Shown here piece after piece: positions 49,716 through 61,154 of a DNA stretch of 64,000 nucleotides; position 1 is the stretch's first letter; the number at the start of each line of letters is the position of its first letter. A program made the translations under genes and the position numbers. The notes under the pieces are model-generated. The model worked only from the letters and a program-made list of their open reading frames with translations, was not told where the DNA came from and did no database searches. Origin of the DNA: Candidatus Micrarchaeota archaeon (GTDB taxonomy: Archaea; Micrarchaeota; Micrarchaeia; Anstonellales; Bilamarchaeaceae); contig JBDRPL010000009.1 of assembly GCA_043827025.1 (NCBI GenBank), forward strand, positions 4,075 to 68,074, read 5' to 3'.

Positions 49716-49943
49716 TCACGAAGAGAATGCGGATGGTTCTACGACAGTAATGTTCTTTAGGATTGATCGAAGCTTGGAACCTTCTATCTCTTCCATGTAT
49801 ACCTCTGCAGCTTCCTTTATGTTGGCGAATGCTTCCTCTTTTGTTTCTCCTTGTGAGATGCAACCTGGAAGTTCAGGAACATATACGGTATATCCGCCTT
49901 CTTCTTGTTTTTCCAAGACTACATGGTATTTCATATTATTCAT
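49716..49943 (-). CDS. hicB: HicB antitoxin (short form)
   Basis: EEGGYTVYVPELPGCISQGETKEEAFANIKEA. Confidence 0.93.
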   Translation of the reverse strand: MNNMKYHVVLEKQEEGGYTVYVPELPGCISQGETKEEAFANIKEAAEVYMEEIEGSKLRSILKNITVVEPSAFSS

Positions 49944-50051
49944 TATATTCCACCTTGTTTTTATTCTTACTGTTTTTCTTATGGTGATAAATGCCACCAA
50001 CATTATTTAAGTATTCCATATGTCATAATAAAAATCAAAAGGTGTTTTTAT

Positions 50052-52604: not shown

Positions 52605-53216
52605 TTATCCGGAGAGTCCTGGCATATCTCCTTCACAGCTGAGCATTATTGCTTCCTGAGTATCAGGATCATCATAGCCCTCCATCATCATGATGAGTTC
52701 TATGCCGAATATAGTTGTCTTTTTGTTTTCTGCATCTCCTCCCCTCATCATATTTATCACGGGGTTTGGAAGTGTGCATTTCTTGTATTTTCCAGCATAT
52801 GCTTTTTGGTCTTCCATCTGTATGTTGTCAGCAGGGCCATATTGTACCTTGACCATGCATCCGTCACCTGATGGGCCTTCTATAGTGAAGTCCAACCCCT
52901 TATCTGGTTCTGTGACCTTTGCCTTTGAACAGGCAAGTAAATTCTCATAGATGCAGTAATTTGCATTGATGTCGTTATCTGTTGTTGGCGGAACTGTTTT
53001 TTCATAGATCTTGCCGCAATCCGCGTATGTGGGTGCAGTTGTCACCGGCGTTGTCGTTACTGGGGGTGTTGTTTGTGTGCCATCTGTAGTGGTTGTTGTT
53101 TCCGTTGTTGCAGGTGCATTTTGATCTATTGTGCTTGTGCTGGTACAGCCGCTGAGCATCAGCATCGCAATTATTAATCCTATCAAAAGGACCGACTTAT
53201 TTTTTTGAAATTCCAT
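52605..53216 (-). CDS. Lipoprotein with Thr/Pro linker and Cys-containing domain
   Basis: Lipobox LSGC, TTTPPVTTTP linker; GGAGGG RBS before ATG 53216. Confidence 0.8.
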   Translation of the reverse strand: MEFQKNKSVLLIGLIIAMLMLSGCTSTSTIDQNAPATTETTTTTDGTQTTPPVTTTPVTTAPTYADCGKIYEKTVPPTTDNDINANYCIYENLLACSKAKVTEPDKGLDFTIEGPSGDGCMVKVQYGPADNIQMEDQKAYAGKYKKCTLPNPVINMMRGGDAENKKTTIFGIELIMMMEGYDDPDTQEAIMLSCEGDMPGLSG

Positions 53217-53233
53217 TTTATCCCCTCCTTTCA

Positions 53234-54136
53234 TTATTTTTTGTGTAGGTATTCCTTCACCATTTCTTTTATACCTTCGGGTGTCTTCCTTGGCTTGAAC
53301 TTCAGTTCTTTCTTTGCCTTTGCGCAGTTAAAAAACCTGTCGTTGGCAAGTATGTTCAGGTGCTCGGAAGTAAGGAATTGTTTTTTATTCATCAGCTTTT
53401 TTATCATGCCTTGTAATAGGAAAAGCGCTTTGGCGATTGCCACACTTGTTTTTTTCGGCTCCATCCTGATTCTCAGAGCTTTGCAAACCGCCTCATGTGT
53501 TTCTATTTGAGTTATCGGGTCAGCGCAAACAACATAAACTCCTGGTTTTGCATTTACTGAGTTTGCGATTGCTCGTGCAACATCGTCCACATGCACAAAC
53601 GGAAGATGGTTCTTTCCATCTCCAATTATTGGCATCCTGCTCTTTGAAATATATTCAATCATCTTGAAATAATCTTCGAAACCAGGACCATATATCGTTC
53701 CAATCCTAAGCACCACATTTCCCTTGCCTTCCAAAACTTCCTGCTCGCTTGCATATTTGCTCTTTGCATATTCGCTGTCAGGTCTGCATCTTGTTTGTTC
53801 ATTAGCAGGGAGTTCCGCAAGTTTTTTGCCATAGACTGATATGGAACCTGCATAGATTATCCGTGTTTTTTTCGGGTCAATGGAATCACAAATCCTTTTC
53901 GTCAATCCGTAATTCGCATGCCACAATTCTTTCTTGTCATTGAATTTCATGGAGCCTGCAAGATGTATCACTGCATTTGCGCCTTTGAAAGTCTGTTTCA
54001 AATCAAGATTCGAATCGCGAAGATTAACAGGAATGGCATTTGGAATCAACTTTAAGACTGTCTTTCCAAGCCTTCCCTTAGCGCCTGTTATGTATATCTT
54101 CAGGTTCTGTTTAGGTTTCAATATACTCACTTTCAA
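53234..54136 (-). CDS. NAD-dependent epimerase/dehydratase (extended SDR)
   Basis: ITGAKGRLG, VIHLAG, YAKSK, LRIGTIYG, FVHVDDVA. Confidence 0.92.
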   Translation of the reverse strand: MKVSILKPKQNLKIYITGAKGRLGKTVLKLIPNAIPVNLRDSNLDLKQTFKGANAVIHLAGSMKFNDKKELWHANYGLTKRICDSIDPKKTRIIYAGSISVYGKKLAELPANEQTRCRPDSEYAKSKYASEQEVLEGKGNVVLRIGTIYGPGFEDYFKMIEYISKSRMPIIGDGKNHLPFVHVDDVARAIANSVNAKPGVYVVCADPITQIETHEAVCKALRIRMEPKKTSVAIAKALFLLQGMIKKLMNKKQFLTSEHLNILANDRFFNCAKAKKELKFKPRKTPEGIKEMVKEYLHKK

Positions 54137-54176: not shown

Positions 54177-54545
54177 TCAGTTGAGTCCTGGGTATAACTT
54201 TTTATCAATCGGATTGCATTTTTTGCCCAACTCGTCAAGGCCTTCCACTGCCCCTACGTTTACAATGCACATCTTGCCTAATTCATTGACCACAGGCATG
54301 CATTTCTTTCCCCATTCGTCAACGCCATCTACTTGGCCTGGGTTTACAGTGCATTTCTTGCCTGTGAGGATATCGATAGTCATCAATTTCTTTGATGCTG
54401 GCTGTACTGTTATTTTCGTGTCCCCTACAACTGGCGTGACTTTCTTGGCAATAGTCGCCTTCCCAGAAGCAGATTCTCCTTGGATACATCCTGCAAGCAG
54501 TATTGCCATTGCCAAAAGTCCGATTATCAATAGTTTGGTGTTCAT
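54177..54545 (-). CDS. Small lipoprotein with two 28-aa GKKC repeats
   Basis: Lipobox LAGC; DILTGKKCTVNPGQVDGVDEWGKKCMP and NELGKMCIVNVGAVEGLDELGKKCNP. Confidence 0.8.
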   Translation of the reverse strand: MNTKLLIIGLLAMAILLAGCIQGESASGKATIAKKVTPVVGDTKITVQPASKKLMTIDILTGKKCTVNPGQVDGVDEWGKKCMPVVNELGKMCIVNVGAVEGLDELGKKCNPIDKKLYPGLN

Positions 54546-54757
54546 AATTATCTATTGATCCGGGCATGTTTTTATTGGTTTGGGTTATTGCGAATGGCAT
54601 GGCGCAGGCAATTGGCATAATCGACAAAAAAGATTCAAAGCCAGTAATCAATAAGCTGAAAGCCATTGGATTTGATTAATCGAATAGCAGAACGAGTGAA
54701 AAAAGACGCGTATTTATAAACCTACAATTCCATATTTTCACCAATGATCGGTGATAC

Positions 54758-55582
54758 GTGATGGTAAGCCAGAAAACACTTATTTATGGTTCTGTTGCAA
54801 TTGGCGTGCTGGGTTTTTTCCTTAGCCTCATAAATGCTTCAGGCCCTAGTACAAACCCTCTTTTAGGGATGATAGGCGCAATATTTGCAGGGATGGGCGC
54901 GCTTTTTGCGGTAATTTTTGTAAAGTTTGGTTACATTGTGATACCTGCAATCACGAAAAGGACCGGCACTGTGGTTCAGTTTGAGAATTCCTATGAGATA
55001 CCTCCTTCAGAGGATGTGGTTGTGAAGAATGTTAATGGTGCATATTATGCCTCAGCATTCCTTAGCCTGGAGATATTTGAATCCGCCTCGGAAAAGTCCA
55101 ATGAGCAGAATATCGCATACAATGAGTTTTTCGAAAGGGCAATTTCGAACCTGAAATATGTCACAAAAATCTCATACTTAGTGTATGTCGAAGATATCAC
55201 AGAAGAAAGGAAAAGAATAGATACTAGGAGAGCAGAAGCCCAGCTTAGGCTCCAAAGAGAGAGGGAAAAGGGCGAACAGGACGTATTGAGGATCGACAAG
55301 TTTGAGAAAGAGATTTCGATGTTTGATGGCCAGCTTGACAAACTCATACGCGGTGAAAAGCCTATTGGTGTAATTGCAACAGCAATGACCTGCGCAGTTG
55401 GAGTTAGCAAGGATGCTGCAATTGCAAATGTGAAGGCGCAGGCCAATGAACTTACGACTCTATTGTCAAATGCACTTAATGTGAAAGTGGAGCAGCTTAC
55501 TGGAGACCAGATGCTGAAATGCTTTGAATGGGAATCTTTCTTCCCTGCGAAACCGCAGGATTTACAGGATAACTTGGTGTAA
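54758..55582 (+). CDS. Two-TM protein resembling VirB3 plus the VirB4/TraC N-terminal region
   Basis: Two N-terminal TM helices, coiled insert, C-terminal A...A.EL...L.N.LNV.V..LTG..M..CF pattern; directly upstream of the ATPase. Confidence 0.55.
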   Translation: MMVSQKTLIYGSVAIGVLGFFLSLINASGPSTNPLLGMIGAIFAGMGALFAVIFVKFGYIVIPAITKRTGTVVQFENSYEIPPSEDVVVKNVNGAYYASAFLSLEIFESASEKSNEQNIAYNEFFERAISNLKYVTKISYLVYVEDITEERKRIDTRRAEAQLRLQREREKGEQDVLRIDKFEKEISMFDGQLDKLIRGEKPIGVIATAMTCAVGVSKDAAIANVKAQANELTTLLSNALNVKVEQLTGDQMLKCFEWESFFPAKPQDLQDNLV

Positions 55583-55585
55583 GAT

Positions 55586-57124
55586 ATGTTGGGCGGAAAA
55601 TTGCATCTAAGCAAAATCAAGAACGTGGATCTTGCAAGGAGGAATCTTCTTGTGCATCCTCCTGAGCCCCCTATAGAGATAGTGTTTCCCGACCCGCTCA
55701 ATTCCGTTTATGTGGGAAGAACAAAGATATTTAATGTTCCTTTTTACTGGTCCTATGAAAATGTTGCAAATCCGCACATTGCAGTGGTAGGTATCTCAGG
55801 TTCAGGTAAAAGTTATTTCATAAAAACCTTTCTTCTTAGGTCATCCTACGTATGGAATGCGAACGCACTTATAATCGATTGGGCTGGGGAGTATAAGGAC
55901 TGGGTAAGGCAGACTGGCGGGAAAATCATCTCTCTGGGAAAAGGCTCGTTTCTCAACCTTCTTGATCTTGGAGGCATGAAGCCGTATAATAGGATAAAAC
56001 AGATAATGAGGACCCTTGGTATACTTACAGATATTGATCAATATCCTGAGCAAAAAAGGCTGACAGAACAGGCTTTGGAAAAAGCATACATAAAGGCAAA
56101 ATACAAGATGGATCGGAATGACCAGAAGGATGAGCTGGGAAAAGGCCTTACGCCCCCGACTTTAAGAGACGTTGTCAATGAACTGAAGGAGCAGGCGACT
56201 CTGGGCACATATGAATTCCCTGCTGAACTCGAGAATGCTATTTACAGATTAAAACAATTCACTAGAAGCGGAGAGGATTTCTTTGCGCAGCAGAGCACAG
56301 TTTCGCTTGATGAAATAACTACTTCCGGCCTTGTTGATCTTGATTTGTCTGGTTTGCCTGATGAAACCTTTAGGGCATTAGGCGCACTTACTATCCTACA
56401 GTTCCTTAAGGAGAAGATGAGGCTGACAGGATGGGAATCCAAAAAAGGAGTGAAATTTATAATCGTGCTTGATGAGGCTTGGAAAATAGCTGGTGATGAG
56501 AAGAGTGATGCAGTCATGATAATAAGAGAGGGCCGTAAATATAATTTCTGCATGATAGTGGCATCCCAAAATCCTACAGACATCAATGAGGCCATTTTTT
56601 CCAACGTTGGAACAACATTCATCTTGAAGATAAAGTTCGATAAGTATCTGGATTATTTACAATCTACATTAAACTTCAGCAATTATATGCGAAATGCAAT
56701 CTCGAAATTCGGTGTAGGGGAATGTGCAGTCAATATGGCCTTTACTACGCCCACCCAATATCCCCCAACATTCCTGATCAGTAAAATCGAAGGTGAAGAG
56801 CCTGCAGAGGAATATTTCCTTGACTTAGAACTGGCACTTACTCCTGAGCAGAAGAAAAAGATGGAATTCAATACGAGGGTGGCATTCCTTAAGAAAGAGC
56901 TTACAAGGAAACTCGTGCAATATGGTTTGAATCTTGACAAGGTCAAAGAAACGATTTCTGCATTTGAGAAGGAGAAACGGCACCTAGGAGTAGTTAAATT
57001 TGTCATTATGCTTGAGAGGTATGGTATAGCAAGGCAAAACATCTCAAAGCTTCTGAAGGAATCAGGGCTTGACGATCGTGTAATAATCAGTATTTTTGCA
57101 AAAGCCAGAAGCGGAGGTGTCTGA
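55586..57124 (+). CDS. VirB4/TraB/HerA-superfamily secretion ATPase with extra C-terminal helical domain
   Basis: PHIAVVGISGSGKS Walker A, IIDWAGEY, IVLDEAW Walker B, REGRKY, ASQNPTD. Confidence 0.88.
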   Translation: MLGGKLHLSKIKNVDLARRNLLVHPPEPPIEIVFPDPLNSVYVGRTKIFNVPFYWSYENVANPHIAVVGISGSGKSYFIKTFLLRSSYVWNANALIIDWAGEYKDWVRQTGGKIISLGKGSFLNLLDLGGMKPYNRIKQIMRTLGILTDIDQYPEQKRLTEQALEKAYIKAKYKMDRNDQKDELGKGLTPPTLRDVVNELKEQATLGTYEFPAELENAIYRLKQFTRSGEDFFAQQSTVSLDEITTSGLVDLDLSGLPDETFRALGALTILQFLKEKMRLTGWESKKGVKFIIVLDEAWKIAGDEKSDAVMIIREGRKYNFCMIVASQNPTDINEAIFSNVGTTFILKIKFDKYLDYLQSTLNFSNYMRNAISKFGVGECAVNMAFTTPTQYPPTFLISKIEGEEPAEEYFLDLELALTPEQKKKMEFNTRVAFLKKELTRKLVQYGLNLDKVKETISAFEKEKRHLGVVKFVIMLERYGIARQNISKLLKESGLDDRVIISIFAKARSGGV

Positions 57125-57125
57125 A

Positions 57126-57425
57126 TTGACAAACAGCATAAAGATGCTCAAGGATGATTTCAGGAGACGGCTAAGAGCATATGGTCTTTCAGAAGAAAGG
57201 ATGGAAGAGGCATCAAGGCTTTTTGAAAGGAACAATAGCCATGTGGATGTAATTTCATTTGTTCTCATGCTTGAGCGATTTGGAGTTTCAAGACGAGACA
57301 TCCGCGATTTTCTCAAGGAAGCGGGCATAGATGACATCACACTTATAAATGTCTTTGGAAAAGTAGACATCAAGAAAAGCGATTTTTCCAGCAGTGGCAT
57401 AACTCAGGTAGTCCTGGAGGATTGA
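57126..57425 (+). CDS. Small protein paralogous to the ATPase C-terminal domain
   Basis: GGAGGTG RBS before TTG 57126; gapless alignment to the ATPase tail with 30/74 identities counted by hand. Confidence 0.8.
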   Translation: MTNSIKMLKDDFRRRLRAYGLSEERMEEASRLFERNNSHVDVISFVLMLERFGVSRRDIRDFLKEAGIDDITLINVFGKVDIKKSDFSSSGITQVVLED

Positions 57426-57427
57426 AC

Positions 57428-57811
57428 ATGAAAGTCTGCATCATATGCGAAAAAGAAGTAAAAGGCTCGAATTCAGGGGCGAAGAAGGTAAAGATAGATG
57501 TGGTCATCAAAGCCATCAGGTCTATGAAGTCTTTTTTGAAGGTGGCAAAGAACAATGGACTGTATGTGTGCAAGAAAGATTTTGAGTCTTACAGGAAGAA
57601 AAGGGAGAAATTTGAAAGAGATATGGTGCTTGTTTCAGCCATTGCCGCGATAGTTGTATTAGTATTGATAGGAATCCCGCTTCTTTCAGGGCGACTCAAT
57701 CTTCTTGATGTGTTTGCCTCTCTGTTCCTGGGGGTGCTTTTGCTTGCCTTTGGAGTTATCTTTAGATACACGCCTGCAATAGAAGGCGCAGGAAAAATCA
57801 AGGGTGTTTGA
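57428..57811 (+). CDS. Two-TM protein with N-terminal Cys motif
   Basis: CIIC...YVC soluble part followed by two hydrophobic helices; GGAGG RBS. Confidence 0.8.
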   Translation: MKVCIICEKEVKGSNSGAKKVKIDVVIKAIRSMKSFLKVAKNNGLYVCKKDFESYRKKREKFERDMVLVSAIAAIVVLVLIGIPLLSGRLNLLDVFASLFLGVLLLAFGVIFRYTPAIEGAGKIKGV

Positions 57812-57812
57812 C

Positions 57813-58544
57813 ATGGTTGACCAGAAAAGAATGGGGGAACCTTCAGTAGGCGGGTTCAAGATAAAAGGCGTGGTGCTGAAAAAATCTTTGAGTAACGTGG
57901 CCGAGATTTTGAGGACAGTTTCATTTTTGGAAGTTGCTCTTGGAACAGACAAGGTGAATGCAGCTTATGTAGAAAGTAAGGATATCAACAACAATCCTTA
58001 TCTTTTTTCGATAATCCAGATAAGTAAGAATGAAGTTGAAGTTATATATTCCATTACTCCTGAAATTTCTCCTGCTAAAAGAAAGATGGATGTGATAAGG
58101 TATTTCCTGAATATCCTCAGCCTTGTGGGCGAATATTATTCAGTGGACAATAAAGTAGTCTATCAGCTCATCGAAGAATCGCTCACTTCAATTGCAGAAT
58201 CTGTGACTCTTGATTATTCTAAGCTTTATACCTCTTATGACAGCCTTAAGGCAGAGGCTGATACTCTCAGGAAGAAAAATGAGAGGATGAAGGATGAGAT
58301 TCAGGCGCTGAACAATAGGAATTTTGAGCTCAAATCGAAAAATGATGAACTTTCGCTTGTGGTTAATGAATTTGAGGGGCTTTCAGATGAGGCGATTATG
58401 GCAAGGCTTCAGAATTGGGTGCTAGAGCATGATGGTGAAGTGAATGTATATGAGTTCGCAAAGGTGAACAAGGTAATCGAGACAAGGGTAGAATCAGCAC
58501 TGAACAAGCTCGTGAGCGAAGGTTACCTGGAGCTCCTGAAATAA
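57813..58544 (+). CDS. Coiled-coil protein with C-terminal winged helix
   Basis: Heptad stretch YDSLKAEA...VVNEF; C-terminal VNVYEFAK...VESALNKLVSEGYL. Confidence 0.75.
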   Translation: MVDQKRMGEPSVGGFKIKGVVLKKSLSNVAEILRTVSFLEVALGTDKVNAAYVESKDINNNPYLFSIIQISKNEVEVIYSITPEISPAKRKMDVIRYFLNILSLVGEYYSVDNKVVYQLIEESLTSIAESVTLDYSKLYTSYDSLKAEADTLRKKNERMKDEIQALNNRNFELKSKNDELSLVVNEFEGLSDEAIMARLQNWVLEHDGEVNVYEFAKVNKVIETRVESALNKLVSEGYLELLK

Positions 58545-58559
58545 ACTAGAAGGATTGCT

Positions 58560-61115
58560 ATGGTGGATGTTACAAAACTCAGGATTTCAAAGAAATCGTA
58601 CAGGTTCGAGGTAAAGAAGAAATTCGAAAATGCCCAAATCTACAAGCCAGTCAAACGCAGCCTAGGCGAGCAGTTGAAGAATTCACTTTCAAAGATGTTC
58701 AAGCCAAAGCCAAAGCCCAAAGCAGTAGTAGGTTTTATTACTCCACCCAGTGCCCATCATGGATTCAATTTCAAGCTTCTTTTTGGAGCAATAATCATTG
58801 CTTTCATTTTAGTATATGCCGGCTTTGCATTTTATGTCCAGACAATCTCCTCTTTCAACGAGCCTGTTAAAGTCATTGTAAGGGGTTATTTTGATAGTTC
58901 CATTGTTGACAAGGGAATCATAACTGCAGGAGATAGGACTAATAGCAAAAACATAGGCTATGTCCGCCTTGACCATAAGTCCTCTAATATTGATAGTTAT
59001 AGTGTTAACATCTCCGTTTATGATCAGTATCTGCCATCTGAGATATTCGTACTTGACAGTGCAAGATATCAGGCAGATTCGTTTGATGAATTCTTTTTTG
59101 ACCTTAAGAATGATCTCTATTCTATGGGGATGCATGTGACCAAGATTTCGATAAAAGACCTCCATTCCATGCCTGCAGGCGCCATGATCATCGTACCTTC
59201 AGGCCAGATACCAGAGGAGTTCCTTGGGGATTCAGGGCTTCTCAAAAGCCTTACTTCAAAAGGCTCAGTCATAATTTATATTGGAAACAACTTTGACCAA
59301 ATGTTACGCACCTCTTCAGATGGCCAGGGCGTTGTTGTCAAGACTCCTGATGCCCTAAAAACAAACTCCGTAGGATTCACTGCCTCAAGGCCGACATGTT
59401 CTGGTCTTGGGCTATATGATTCATTATATGATGTCAGAGGTTCATCTTCTCTTTATGGTTGTGTGAGCCTGATCAAATATGGCCAGGGTAACATATTATT
59501 CCTTCCTCAAACCCTTGATTCAGGATGGATCTCTAATGGAAGCCCTGACCCAGCTCTTGCATCAAAAGACATATCCAAGATAATTTATGATGCTGCATGG
59601 CTGAAACCCTCTATTGAAAACAAATATTATTATTTCAACAAATCAGAAGATGGTATTACTGATTTTTTCACCAATACTTTTGATGGTGATGATAAATATG
59701 TCCGCTTTGAGATACGAAGCTATTCAAGCAACATAATGTTCCTTGATGTGCGTACACTTCACCTTGCTAAGAATGTAAATGGGGATCTGACAACTGAAGG
59801 GGGATATATTGTTTCAGTAGAACAAACAGATTCCAGAATCAGGATGCATGCCGACCTCAAGGATCCAAAGCCTGAAGAGAAACAACTCTATTTTGTTATC
59901 ACAAAGAATGGTGAATTTGTTGGTGAAAGGACTCCATTTTCAAGAGGTCCTGTAAGTACGATAACTCCTGTTTCAGGAGATGTTTCAGTTGCCCTTGATT
60001 CCGGGGAATATATTGCAGAGCTTGTGGATGACGAAAGTTATGTGTATGCGAAATCTTACCTCAAGGTCGTTTTTCTAGATATAGCGTACACAGGTACAAA
60101 CAACCTGCGGACAATAGCTGGTTTCTCCATTAAGAAAGATGGAAAGCCTTTCAAGGTGACAAGCGAGTTCAAGGTGAGTGCTGACAATGGAAAATTCGGC
60201 ACATACACCTTTAAGGATGTTTCTGATGTGGAAGTTGATGTTTCCAAATATGTTCCTGACGGCCTTCCGAGTGGGGAGCATATATTTACATTTACCATAG
60301 GTAATGTGAAAAAAGATGTCACTGCCCAGACCTTCGGAAGCGCGTGCGTTGGCATATTCTGCAAGGCGGAATTCATAATTGTTGTTGTTTTGGCAGTAGG
60401 AATATTCATTCTTGGATATTACTTTGCAAAGAAAGACAAGCCAATATATCAGATAGATATACCTGATTTCCCTCCTATTATCAGGAGCAAAGTTCCTCTT
60501 AGGACTTCAGAAGTGCTTGAGCTTTTCAATAAGGTCAATGAGGATTACAAATGGAACCACAGCCCGCTTACGATTACTGAGTTCAAGGAAAGTTTCAAGA
60601 CTATCTACCATGGAGGCATGTCATTGAATATAACTGATTTCAATGCAGAATATGTTCTTGATTCGCTTATTTCAAGAGGCCTCGTGAAGGAATGCCTTGA
60701 TTATTATGCACCTTCTTCATGGGAACTGGCTTCTAAGAAAACAACTGTTTATCTTGCTATATTCAGGAAGATAAGGGATATTTGTGTTAATAATGCTGTT
60801 CCTTTCACCCGGATGGGTGAAGTGAAGTCCTGCGACACAAAAATTACTACGGTAGGCCAGGAAATGCTTGTCCATATCTGGTCCGAAAGCGGAGGCAGTT
60901 TACCTGCATTCTTTAAGAATCTCCTGAAGTCATCAAGGGATGGCATAAATCTTGTCATTTTCAAAGACATTGTCTCAAAAGAAGCGTTTTATTCATATCT
61001 GCTTTCGCCAAACCCGCCTATTCTTCTTGTGAAAATGGCTGTTGAGAACGGATCTATACAGTTGATGACTGTTGATGAGTTTGAGAAGATGGTCAAGGAC
61101 TTGAAGTTCGTCTAG
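58560..61115 (+). CDS. Large membrane protein: two TM helices enclosing a ~500-aa beta-rich domain, plus a cytoplasmic C-terminal domain
   Basis: TM near aa 72-93 and aa 607-625; last gene of the co-oriented cluster. Confidence 0.8.
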   Translation: MVDVTKLRISKKSYRFEVKKKFENAQIYKPVKRSLGEQLKNSLSKMFKPKPKPKAVVGFITPPSAHHGFNFKLLFGAIIIAFILVYAGFAFYVQTISSFNEPVKVIVRGYFDSSIVDKGIITAGDRTNSKNIGYVRLDHKSSNIDSYSVNISVYDQYLPSEIFVLDSARYQADSFDEFFFDLKNDLYSMGMHVTKISIKDLHSMPAGAMIIVPSGQIPEEFLGDSGLLKSLTSKGSVIIYIGNNFDQMLRTSSDGQGVVVKTPDALKTNSVGFTASRPTCSGLGLYDSLYDVRGSSSLYGCVSLIKYGQGNILFLPQTLDSGWISNGSPDPALASKDISKIIYDAAWLKPSIENKYYYFNKSEDGITDFFTNTFDGDDKYVRFEIRSYSSNIMFLDVRTLHLAKNVNGDLTTEGGYIVSVEQTDSRIRMHADLKDPKPEEKQLYFVITKNGEFVGERTPFSRGPVSTITPVSGDVSVALDSGEYIAELVDDESYVYAKSYLKVVFLDIAYTGTNNLRTIAGFSIKKDGKPFKVTSEFKVSADNGKFGTYTFKDVSDVEVDVSKYVPDGLPSGEHIFTFTIGNVKKDVTAQTFGSACVGIFCKAEFIIVVVLAVGIFILGYYFAKKDKPIYQIDIPDFPPIIRSKVPLRTSEVLELFNKVNEDYKWNHSPLTITEFKESFKTIYHGGMSLNITDFNAEYVLDSLISRGLVKECLDYYAPSSWELASKKTTVYLAIFRKIRDICVNNAVPFTRMGEVKSCDTKITTVGQEMLVHIWSESGGSLPAFFKNLLKSSRDGINLVIFKDIVSKEAFYSYLLSPNPPILLVKMAVENGSIQLMTVDEFEKMVKDLKFV

Positions 61116-61154
61116 ATATTAATTTTCAAAGAAAGAGGATATAAAAAAATTAAT

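Follow-up and report, generated by a model that had tools for sequence, protein, structure and literature searches.

Six tightly spaced genes at positions 54758-61115 of a 64,000-nucleotide stretch of Micrarchaeota DNA (contig JBDRPL010000009.1; the whole 64-kb stretch is referred to as the window) were analysed by sequence comparison, synteny and structure modelling. A preliminary description of this DNA had read the genes, here designated g1 to g6, as a resident, minimal apparatus resembling a type IV secretion system (T4SS) and driven by a VirB4-like ATPase. The coordinates given there for the six + strand genes proved to be exact. The open reading frames (ORFs; lengths in amino acids, aa) and the sequence signals around them are as follows:

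54758-55582, + strand: g1, ORF of 274 aa
55586-57124, + strand: g2, ORF of 512 aa
57096-57425, + strand: g3, ORF of 109 aa
57422-57811, + strand: g4, ORF of 129 aa, probably translated from the ATG at 57428
57804-58544, + strand: g5, ORF of 246 aa
58560-61115, + strand: g6, ORF of 851 aa
54713..54720, + strand: TATA-box-like element TTTATAAA, about 38-45 nucleotides (nt) 5′ of the g1 start (sequence reading)
54750..54755, + strand: Shine-Dalgarno-like GGTGAT, 2 nt before the GTG start of g1 (sequence reading)
61116..61154, no strand: AT-rich spacer with T-runs between the convergent g6 and tfe (sequence reading)

The archaeal TATA-box-like element is likely to be the promoter of an operon and the T-rich spacer between g6 and tfe is likely to be its end. 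The intergenic spacings from g1 to g6 are +3, -29, -4, -8 and +15 nt. A single operon is the simplest reading of the six genes, because they are co-directional with gaps between -29 and +15 nt and are bounded by the TATA box on the 5′ side and the T-rich spacer on the 3′ side. For g1, an in-frame ATG is also present at 54761, 5 nt past GGTGAT. Hydrophobic segments were located at residues 7-25 and 35-53 of g1, 69-87 and 95-113 of g4 and 73-91 and 605-623 of g6, and none were found in g2, g3 and g5; these segments and the ATPase motifs discussed below were all recovered as they had been described.

Conservation and genomic setting of the cluster

When one genome per species was scanned, a relative of g2 was found to be encoded in at least 583 species genomes. 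The best 80 of these, species-representative genomes in which 83 loci were counted, were used as the synteny sample. All 80 are Micrarchaeota, and their ATPases are 63-81% identical to g2. Database searches with g2 returned more than 1000 relatives; the best 120 clusters are 66-81% identical, their named members are Candidatus Micrarchaeota or Bilamarchaeaceae, and their contigs are up to 1.03 Mb long. The NCBI taxonomy places Bilamarchaeaceae within Micrarchaeia, order Anstonellales, and with these closest relatives the assignment to a DPANN-type cell, which had been made from the letters of the sequence, was borne out.

The order g1-g2-g4-g5-g6 on one strand was kept in all 80 genomes wherever the contig was long enough. 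Among the 83 loci, g1 was present in 77, g4 in 81, g5 in 80 and g6 in 76, the misses being contig ends, and the g4 gene was located directly after the ATPase gene in 81/83 loci. Typical identities to the window proteins were 55% for g1, 69% for g2, 39% for g4, 50% for g5 and 34% for g6. The cluster is far beyond a chance grouping of genes.

The genomic surroundings were compared between the window and those relatives for which annotated flanks were available. In the window, the 5′ flank of the cluster encodes lipobox-type small proteins, an NAD-dependent epimerase and an HD-domain protein, and the 3′ flank encodes TFE (PF02002, E 1.2e-14) and methyltransferases, in agreement with the earlier placement of the genes between lipoprotein genes and tfe. 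Elsewhere the window encodes a Cdc48-like AAA ATPase, geranylgeranyl reductase, ThyX, FttA/aCPSF1, a P-type ATPase, an H+-pyrophosphatase and PurD. Flanks were annotated in four relatives (contigs of 1.03 Mb, 0.80 Mb, 0.66 Mb and 127 kb) and consist of housekeeping genes, with purB on the 5′ side, an HD-domain protein and PAC2 nearby, and tfe, a glycosyltransferase, and PRPP (phosphoribosyl pyrophosphate) synthase or pyrBI on the 3′ side; neither integrase nor relaxase genes were found in these annotated flanks.

The absence of a relaxase, an integrase, a tRNA attachment (att) site and a replication gene had been stated for the vicinity of the six genes, and this was upheld by the window scans and the repeat search. 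Integrase, relaxase and replication genes were not found in the cluster or its flanks, ARAGORN detected zero tRNA genes in the 64-kb window, which is part of an otherwise gene-dense chromosome, Rfam yielded zero families at gathering score for the same window, and no significant direct repeats flank the cluster. The GC content of the cluster, 0.40-0.42, is the same as that of the rest of the window. Because of the synteny in 80 genomes and the housekeeping flanks without integrase or relaxase, the cluster is regarded as resident, as had been proposed, and as inherited vertically with the chromosome.

Some side observations were made next to the cluster. Two small - strand proteins encoded directly 5′ of the operon, at 52605-53234 and 54177-54545, have lipobox-like N-termini (…LSGC… and …LAGC…) and gave zero matches in Pfam; in the four relatives with annotated flanks, purB holds the position of these lipobox-like genes. 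A small ORF at 49716-50003 on the - strand resembles HicB-type antitoxins (PDB HicB chains, E 1e-3 to 3e-3; TTHA1756, E 2e-4).

The ATPase g2 and the membrane protein g1

The g2 protein is a P-loop ATPase of the HerA-FtsK superfamily by its sequence, and its features were mapped as follows:

55586..57124, + strand: g2, with the catalytic domain at about residues 40-400 and a C-terminal helical domain at about residues 427-507
55790-55813, + strand: Walker A, GISGSGKS, residues 69-76
56462-56482, + strand: Walker B, IVLDEAW, residues 293-299
56525-56542, + strand: REGRKY, residues 314-319
56561-56569, + strand: ASQ, residues 326-328

The key residues of Walker A, Walker B, REGRKY and ASQ (the Q of the latter) do not vary among aligned relatives with identities as low as 24%, and g2 is an intact P-loop ATPase. 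It is present in a single copy within the window.

The family placement of g2 was performed by ranking hidden Markov model (HMM) scores. The Pfam models above cut-off were DUF87 (the HerA central domain; best match, E 2e-16), AAA_10 and P-loop_TraG. FtsK_SpoIIIE (PF01580) scored 19.7 bits versus a cut-off of 24 bits and aligned only to the P-loop residues 47-84, and T2SSE (type IV pilus/archaellum ATPase, PilB/FlaI) gave no match in Pfam or NCBIfam. In NCBIfam, the top models were CedB with 69 bits (cut-off 700) and CedD with 68 bits (cut-off 600), followed by the VirB4-type models NF045975 with 67 bits (cut-off 590) and NF045971 with 65 bits (cut-off 325), both of monoderm type, TraC (TIGR02746) with 56 bits (cut-off 567) and VirB4_CagE (TIGR00929) with 51 bits (cut-off 643); the HerA models were lowest with 46 and 37 bits. 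This ranking of Ced/VirB4 above HerA was repeated in six other members of the clade. VirB4-type models align to g2 residues 40-380, and the solved VirB4 C-terminal domain 4ag5 also aligns. Matches on plasmids that cover at least 80% of g2 were mainly TraC/VirB4-family genes, chiefly TraC with 22-25% identity, and 2268 of the 2615 plasmids with a g2 match are conjugative. A phage or defence origin was tried as well: PHROGs and PADLOC yielded only generic HerA/FtsK/terminase P-loop matches for g2 (PADLOC HerA models, best E 2e-18) and nothing for the other genes. As a side observation, two g2 orthologues from other Micrarchaeota, P0122 and P0123, carry large intein-like insertions, which interrupt the P-loop (GSGKS) in one of them and directly precede Walker B (VLDEAW) in the other; in both proteins, the N-terminal and the C-terminal part align to g2.

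The first gene had been described as encoding a protein with two transmembrane (TM) segments. Both segments are present, and the protein appears to be more than a 2-TM protein. The N-terminal two-helix membrane hairpin of g1 (residues ~5-69) is followed by a cytoplasmic domain of alpha/beta type that contains a long helical hairpin, and the AlphaFold2 (AF2) model (predicted local distance difference test, pLDDT, 74.5) shows the same arrangement. The 322 homologues of g1 are all unnamed; Pfam detected zero domains in g1 or these homologues, including the VirB4 N-terminal family CagE_TrbE_VirB, and a PDB sequence-profile search with g1 returned nothing.

Information on g1 was obtained from relatives of g2 in which the ATPase is part of a longer chain. 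The search with g2 found fused relatives of ~880 aa (P0154 has 892 aa), in which the ATPase domain starts near residue 275, is 29-34% identical to g2 (E 1e-39 to 1e-56) and is preceded by two membrane helices and a domain of ~200 residues. The g1 protein is colinear with P0154 residues 83-262 (BLASTP E 6e-5), and P0154 residue 276 aligns with g2 residue 15; therefore g1 and g2 together correspond to one fused protein cut at a domain boundary. Further links were found between g1 and the fused protein of locus L095 (BLASTP E 2.7e-6) and between the g1 family and the fused family (hhalign E 6.5e-5 over 231 columns, hairpin included). The fused relatives cover positions 75-587 of the 590 positions of the CedB model (E 7e-42), and one of them aligns to TraC from inside the N-terminal domain onward. 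A stand-alone g1-like protein, that of locus L112, matches CedB positions 5-194 of 590 (E 2e-4). Foldseek searches with the g1 model gave TrwK/VirB4 chains of the R388 T4SS as best PDB matches (9 of the top 13; best match E 4e-3, prob 0.99). According to Wu et al. (PMC11868833), the N-terminal domains of CedB and CedD are structurally homologous to different parts of the VirB4 N-terminal domain, and the latter can be divided between proteins.

From these results, g1 probably corresponds to VirB3 together with the N-terminal domain of VirB4/CedB, in a gene separate from that of the ATPase. The single links are modest, but they are independent and agree with each other. Taken together, g1 and g2 look like a split VirB3/VirB4-type motor.

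The gene neighbourhoods of the fused relatives were inspected for components of known systems. On their 5′ side, an 84-aa two-TM protein matches CedA1 over its full length (E 1.8e-12), and a second neighbour, a 307-aa six-TM protein, matches CedA (E 1.4e-16) and CedE (E 1e-14), again over the full length, so the fused relatives appear to sit in a recognisable Ced-like gene set. The placement of g2 on the VirB4/CedB side of the HerA-FtsK superfamily is supported once g1 and the CedA/CedA1 neighbours of the fused relatives are counted. The earlier designation of the ATPase as VirB4-like stands to that extent, and the ATPase domain alone gave no separation from HerA.

The fused family is found on metagenome contigs (loci L084-L096), with ATPases of ~880 aa adjoining CedA1-like and CedA-like genes and a gene for a small protein with two TM segments; the family represents a Ced-like system in organisms other than Sulfolobales. 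Judged by eye, its ATPases consist of a two-TM hairpin, the N-terminal domain and the ATPase, followed by a C-terminus with winged helix-turn-helix-like (wHTH-like) and PD-(D/E)xK-like parts. One protein related to this family is labelled Thermoproteota.

Distant relatives with 28-44% identity are split in the same way as g1 and g2, and all of them are located in housekeeping contexts (PheRS, SRP54/FtsY, ribosomal proteins, PcrB, PurH). Their gene orders include the following:

L104: g1-like, ATPase, g5-like
L106: 316-aa multi-TM protein, g1-like, ATPase, g5-like
L107: ATPase, g5-like
L108 (1566-6971): 79-aa two-TM protein, 314-aa six-TM protein, g1-like, ATPase, 648-aa two-TM protein
L112 (5285-9407): 82-aa two-TM protein, 291-aa seven-TM protein, g1-like, ATPase, g5-like

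Proteins with 6-7 TM segments, which are mutually related, adjoin the motor in L106, L108, L112 and L113, and the small two-TM hairpin is also present in L108 and L112. The 648-aa protein of L108 has the ectodomain of g6 (E 1.5e-8). The gene set of L108 and L112 may represent a fuller ancestral set of the system. When the CedA-like proteins and the 6-7 TM neighbours of the relatives were used as queries in tblastn searches, nothing was found in the 64-kb window.

The partner proteins g3 to g6

The third gene had been described as encoding an independent small helical protein, and this had to be revised. The g3 protein matches g2 residues 427-507 (56864-57106) with 38% identity over 81 aa (E 1e-20), and its C-terminus reads ITQVVLED, a motif not present in the shorter ATPase of the window; in most relatives such a motif closes the ATPase itself, as in the 523-530 aa ATPases of other species (…VTHVTIE and …LTQITLE in P0122 and P0123). 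By these alignments g3 is a tandem duplicate of the ~80-aa C-terminal helical domain of the ATPase, with the terminal motif having moved to the copy. A separate g3 gene was found only in the window, its closest relative L004 and L079 among the 83 loci, and g3 is a lineage-specific accessory. Purifying selection acts on g3, because 42 synonymous and 32 non-synonymous codon differences were counted between the window and L004. Since g3 is absent as a separate gene in most relatives, the conserved core consists of five genes (g1-g2-g4-g5-g6); of the six-gene unit described earlier, the six ORFs hold and the conserved unit is smaller by one gene.

The g4 protein has a basic cytoplasmic N-terminal head with a partly conserved CxxC...C motif, followed by a two-helix membrane hairpin (69-113), and is predicted to be a small membrane subunit. 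Weak Pfam matches recurred among 20 members (DUF2116 treble clef in 10/20, DUF2207_C in 17/20). The identification of g4 as a pilin was rejected: hhalign of 20 orthologues against 8 CedA1-like proteins gave a probability of 0.1%, and the single Pfam match to TrbC/VirB2 (E 0.06) recurs in just 1/20 members.

The soluble g5 protein consists of a conserved N-terminal domain (residues ~20-125), a coiled coil (~126-195) and a C-terminal winged helix (~197-245). Its library matches were of coiled-coil and TrmB type, and the winged helix matched the winged-helix domains of 2xvc (E 3e-4) and PH0140 (E 1e-2) in the PDB; a PDB sequence-profile search with g5 gave merely coiled-coil and winged-helix noise. 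In the distant relatives L104, L106, L107 and L112, the ATPase is followed by a full-length g5 homologue of 24-25% identity, and g5 is, after g1, the partner most widely linked to the ATPase. The winged-helix region of g5 weakly resembles the ATPase C-terminal domain (hhalign E 0.002, prob 14%), and the latter extends, in one pairwise alignment, into the region of the fused relatives that looks wHTH-like by eye. No signal was obtained for a kinship of the g5 N-domain with g1 or with the cytoplasmic domain of g6, and neither g5 nor g6 matched the C-terminal wHTH and nuclease-like part of the fused relatives (hhalign prob <1%).

The g6 protein is the largest of the cluster and is predicted to be partly surface-exposed. 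Its parts were assigned as follows:

58770-58850, + strand: first TM segment (TM1), following a disordered basic N-terminal tail
58872-60344, + strand: ectodomain of ~490 aa, with a beta-sandwich, an alpha/beta domain and immunoglobulin-like (Ig-like) beta-sandwiches
60366-60428, + strand: second TM segment (TM2; hydrophobic segment and model)
60456-60476, + strand: invariant DIPDFPP motif, after TM2
60504-61112, + strand: conserved cytoplasmic domain of ~200 residues, with a winged-helix-like part and an alpha/beta part

The AF2 model of g6 has a pLDDT of 80, and Foldseek searches with the full-length protein returned just generic macroglobulin/Ig/fibronectin type III (FN3) arrays. Only 22 database homologues were found, with no Pfam domain and no PDB sequence match. 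Identity is 0.49 in the linker, 0.41 in the cytoplasmic part and 0.32-0.37 in the ectodomain; the better conservation of the linker and the cytoplasmic part fits docking on a conserved cytoplasmic motor and a faster-evolving exposed surface. The earlier statement that the partner genes could not be recognised was confirmed for g4, g5 and g6, which match nothing described and have no known homologues in Pfam, NCBIfam, PHROGs, PADLOC and database searches.

Comparison with known systems and possible functions

The closest described counterparts are Ced of Sulfolobales (CedA, CedA1, CedA2, CedB, CedD/CedE) and Ted of Thermoproteales, which are chromosomal, relaxase-less archaeal derivatives of conjugation machinery with a VirB4/HerA-like motor (PMC9905601, PMC11868833). 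The cluster shares these properties with them. Among the curated models, those of CedB and CedD score best for g2, the N-terminal module appears to resemble that of CedB, the function of the VirB4 N-terminal domain appears to be spread over two polypeptides as has been proposed for CedB/CedD (PMC11868833), and the fused relatives of g1 and g2 adjoin CedA1-like and CedA-like genes. The cluster differs in that g2 scores about ten-fold under the CedB/CedD cut-offs, a CedA or CedA1 homologue is present in neither the cluster nor the window, the split separates an N-terminal domain from an ATPase domain rather than giving two full ATPases, and none of g4, g5 and g6 is related to a component of Ced or Ted. 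Moreover, the host is a DPANN archaeon and not a crenarchaeon, and no link to UV (ultraviolet) or DNA-damage genes was seen.

With VirB3-VirB4 (TrwM-TrwK) and TraC of F-type systems the motor appears to share its layout of a two-TM anchor, an N-terminal domain and a RecA-like ATPase at the C-terminus, and g2 aligns over most of its length to the TraC, VirB4 CD1110-type and Mbov_0397-type models and to 4ag5. However, the N-terminal domain of the cluster is encoded by a separate gene and fused to the membrane hairpin, TIGR00929 reaches 51 versus 643 bits, the CagE_TrbE_VirB family was not detected, and no homologue of VirB2, B6, B8, B9, B10, B11 or D4 and no relaxase was found in the cluster or the tested flanks. 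Because g2 passed none of the curated thresholds and neither pore nor pilin genes were found in the cluster or the window, the cluster was not filed as a member of the Ced or T4SS families.

Most genomes of Patescibacteria contain a relaxase-less chromosomal T4SS, which is reported to be essential for epibiotic growth in Saccharimonadia (PMC12102498). The T4SS of these bacteria of the Candidate Phyla Radiation (CPR) is comparable by analogy only, being VirB4-centred, chromosomally fixed and relaxase-less in an ultra-small, host-dependent lineage. It is bacterial and nested in the MPF-FATA VirB4 clade and, unlike the cluster, keeps recognisable VirB6-, VirB2- and other T4SS-like partners; at the sequence level the comparison is limited to the shared superfamily. 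A precedent in DPANN is given by the giant surface proteins of nanohaloarchaea, which carry VirB4-like domains (PMC10266531). Full-text literature searches, with most subscription journals outside their scope, found no description of the cluster in Micrarchaeota or DPANN, and the Micrarchaeota genome papers PMC5498576 and PMC12892359 contain no mention of it.

Taken as a whole, the cluster probably encodes a membrane translocation machine derived from the Ced/T4SS machinery, chromosomally fixed, vertically inherited and equipped with new partners, although the case for this is only somewhat better than even. In such a machine, g1 and g2 would form a ring-shaped motor docked at the membrane, comparable to VirB3-VirB4 or CedB/CedD. 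Coupling of this motor to the membrane would be provided by g4 and by g6, the latter through its cytoplasmic domain and DIPDFPP motif, and the Ig-like ectodomain of g6 would reach the cell surface or the host cell. The g5 protein may form a coiled-coil dimer with a winged helix and, with the C-terminal helical domain of the ATPase that was duplicated as g3, may act as an adaptor for the substrate or for assembly, perhaps by binding nucleic acid. The energy of ATP hydrolysis would be used to move a polymer across the membrane, by import or export; the precedents of Ced, Ted and conjugation make DNA its most likely identity (PMC9905601). A more specific form of this interpretation is offered tentatively: the operon could be an undescribed, phylum-wide DPANN translocon in which the split CedB/VirB4 motor and g4, g5 and g6 form a conduit for DNA, nucleotides or other macromolecules from the host. 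By analogy, such a host-uptake translocon would be the archaeal counterpart of the Patescibacteria T4SS.

Several results weigh against a Ced/T4SS-derived translocation machine. No pore (CedA/VirB6) or pilin (CedA1/VirB2) homologue was found in the cluster or the 64-kb window, so the term T4SS-like apparatus used in the preliminary description is carried by the motor and its relatives and not by the rest of the cluster. The 6-7 TM neighbours of the distant relatives failed as CedA homologues (hhalign prob 1.4%; one NCBIfam match, E 0.005). The g2 protein misses all curated NCBIfam cut-offs (325-1177 bits) by about 5- to 14-fold. The family profile scored 76-79 bits against solved HerA proteins versus 66 bits against the VirB4 domain 4ag5; a separation of HerA and VirB4 by the ATPase-domain profile against the PDB was tried and rejected as not discriminating, and because these sequence scores are inseparable, the catalytic domain, taken alone, places g2 in the HerA/VirB4 part of the superfamily and is equidistant from the two. 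In structure, g1 matches TrwK only marginally (E 4e-3 to 0.1, TM-score ~0.3; the aligned TrwK region was not displayed). The ATPase identity of 63-81% is unusually high for secretion or conjugation genes, and a core housekeeping role fits it equally well.

The high identity leads to an alternative in which the operon encodes a housekeeping FtsK-like DNA pump, with the ring of g1 and g2 clearing or partitioning DNA at cell division and g5 and the other winged-helix-like modules binding the chromosome. Such a pump appears unlikely, and it would account for an ATPase so strongly conserved in 80 species genomes, single copy in the window, always placed among housekeeping genes and accompanied by several winged-helix-like modules, as well as for the core of g1-g2-g5 kept in the most distant relatives, from which the large ectodomain protein is missing. 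Inteins typically occur in essential proteins of replication and repair, and those at the P-loop and before Walker B in some orthologues would fit too. However, FtsK_SpoIIIE stays at 19.7 versus 24 bits with the P-loop alone aligned, the nearest differently organised relatives lie in Ced-like sets with CedA1-like and CedA-like neighbours, and a 490-aa extracellular Ig-like part of g6 that is fixed in the operon in this lineage is hard to square with a purely intracellular function.

A surface-structure assembly or protein secretion machine, acting on protein and not on DNA, is given an equally low probability. The motor would then extract small membrane subunits (g4 or others), from which a filament or junction would be built, or export proteins towards the host, with g6 as surface-exposed adhesin or stator. 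VirB4 ATPases drive T4SS pilus biogenesis (PMC12624023, PMC12102498), effector secretion has been suggested for the nanohaloarchaeal VirB4-like domain (PMC10266531), the gene that immediately follows the motor encodes g4, a small protein with a two-TM hairpin, and g6 carries an adhesin-like array of Ig-like domains. Set against this, g4 has no detectable kinship to the VirB2, CedA1 and TrbC pilins, and its 65-residue basic, Cys-containing cytoplasmic head is unlike pilins; the helical, winged-helix-like C-terminal modules of the motor, as in CedB-like relatives, weakly favour nucleic acid handling.

The identification of g2 as a HerA-type repair helicase or as part of an anti-phage HerA defence module is highly improbable and effectively excluded. 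It could draw on membership of the HerA-FtsK superfamily, on DUF87 as the best Pfam match, on the PADLOC HerA models (best E 2e-18) and on solved HerA proteins as the best PDB sequence matches with comparable scores. However, HerA models score under Ced/VirB4 models in NCBIfam, and their alignments mostly cover just the C-terminal half of the ATPase domain. The cluster is without the N-terminal HAS-barrel of HerA, for which the ~40 residues ahead of the ATPase domain of g2 leave no room; in its place, the N-terminal module is a separate membrane protein, probably of VirB4/CedB type, composed of an anchored hairpin and an alpha/beta domain and not of an all-beta barrel. No nuclease or effector partner (NurA, Mre11/Rad50, Sir2, DUF4297) was found in g1 or g3-g6, and the cluster is universal and syntenic in the lineage and not patchy like defence islands. 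Least probable of all is a remnant of an integrated conjugative element or plasmid, which is suggested by the TraC/VirB4 relatives on conjugative plasmids (22-29% identity) and refuted for practical purposes because of the synteny survey, with the five genes present in all 80 genomes where the contig allows, purB and tfe as recurring neighbours in the four annotated relatives, GC content equal to that of the window and no integrase, relaxase, replication gene, tRNA or flanking repeat found. The preliminary description had named three outcomes that would count against it, namely a grouping of the ATPase with HerA or pilus ATPases, unconserved neighbours and an occurrence in integrative conjugative elements only; none of them was found.

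How DPANN archaea acquire macromolecules from their hosts is an open question; giant surface proteins of particular lineages and generic pili are the candidates known so far. The operon adds a small defined gene set, consisting of a recognisable motor and three partners without known homologues, one of them predicted to be surface-exposed. If it is derived from Ced/T4SS machinery as proposed, it would extend beyond Thermoproteota the theme of Ced and Ted, that is, conjugation machinery domesticated for chromosomal functions, and it would represent a second way of splitting a VirB4-type protein, with the hairpin and the N-terminal domain encoded apart from the ATPase domain. If the housekeeping pump were true instead, a new archaeal chromosome-handling machine would have been found, which would also be of interest. 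The operon is therefore put forward as a good candidate for moving DNA or large molecules between Micrarchaeota and their hosts.

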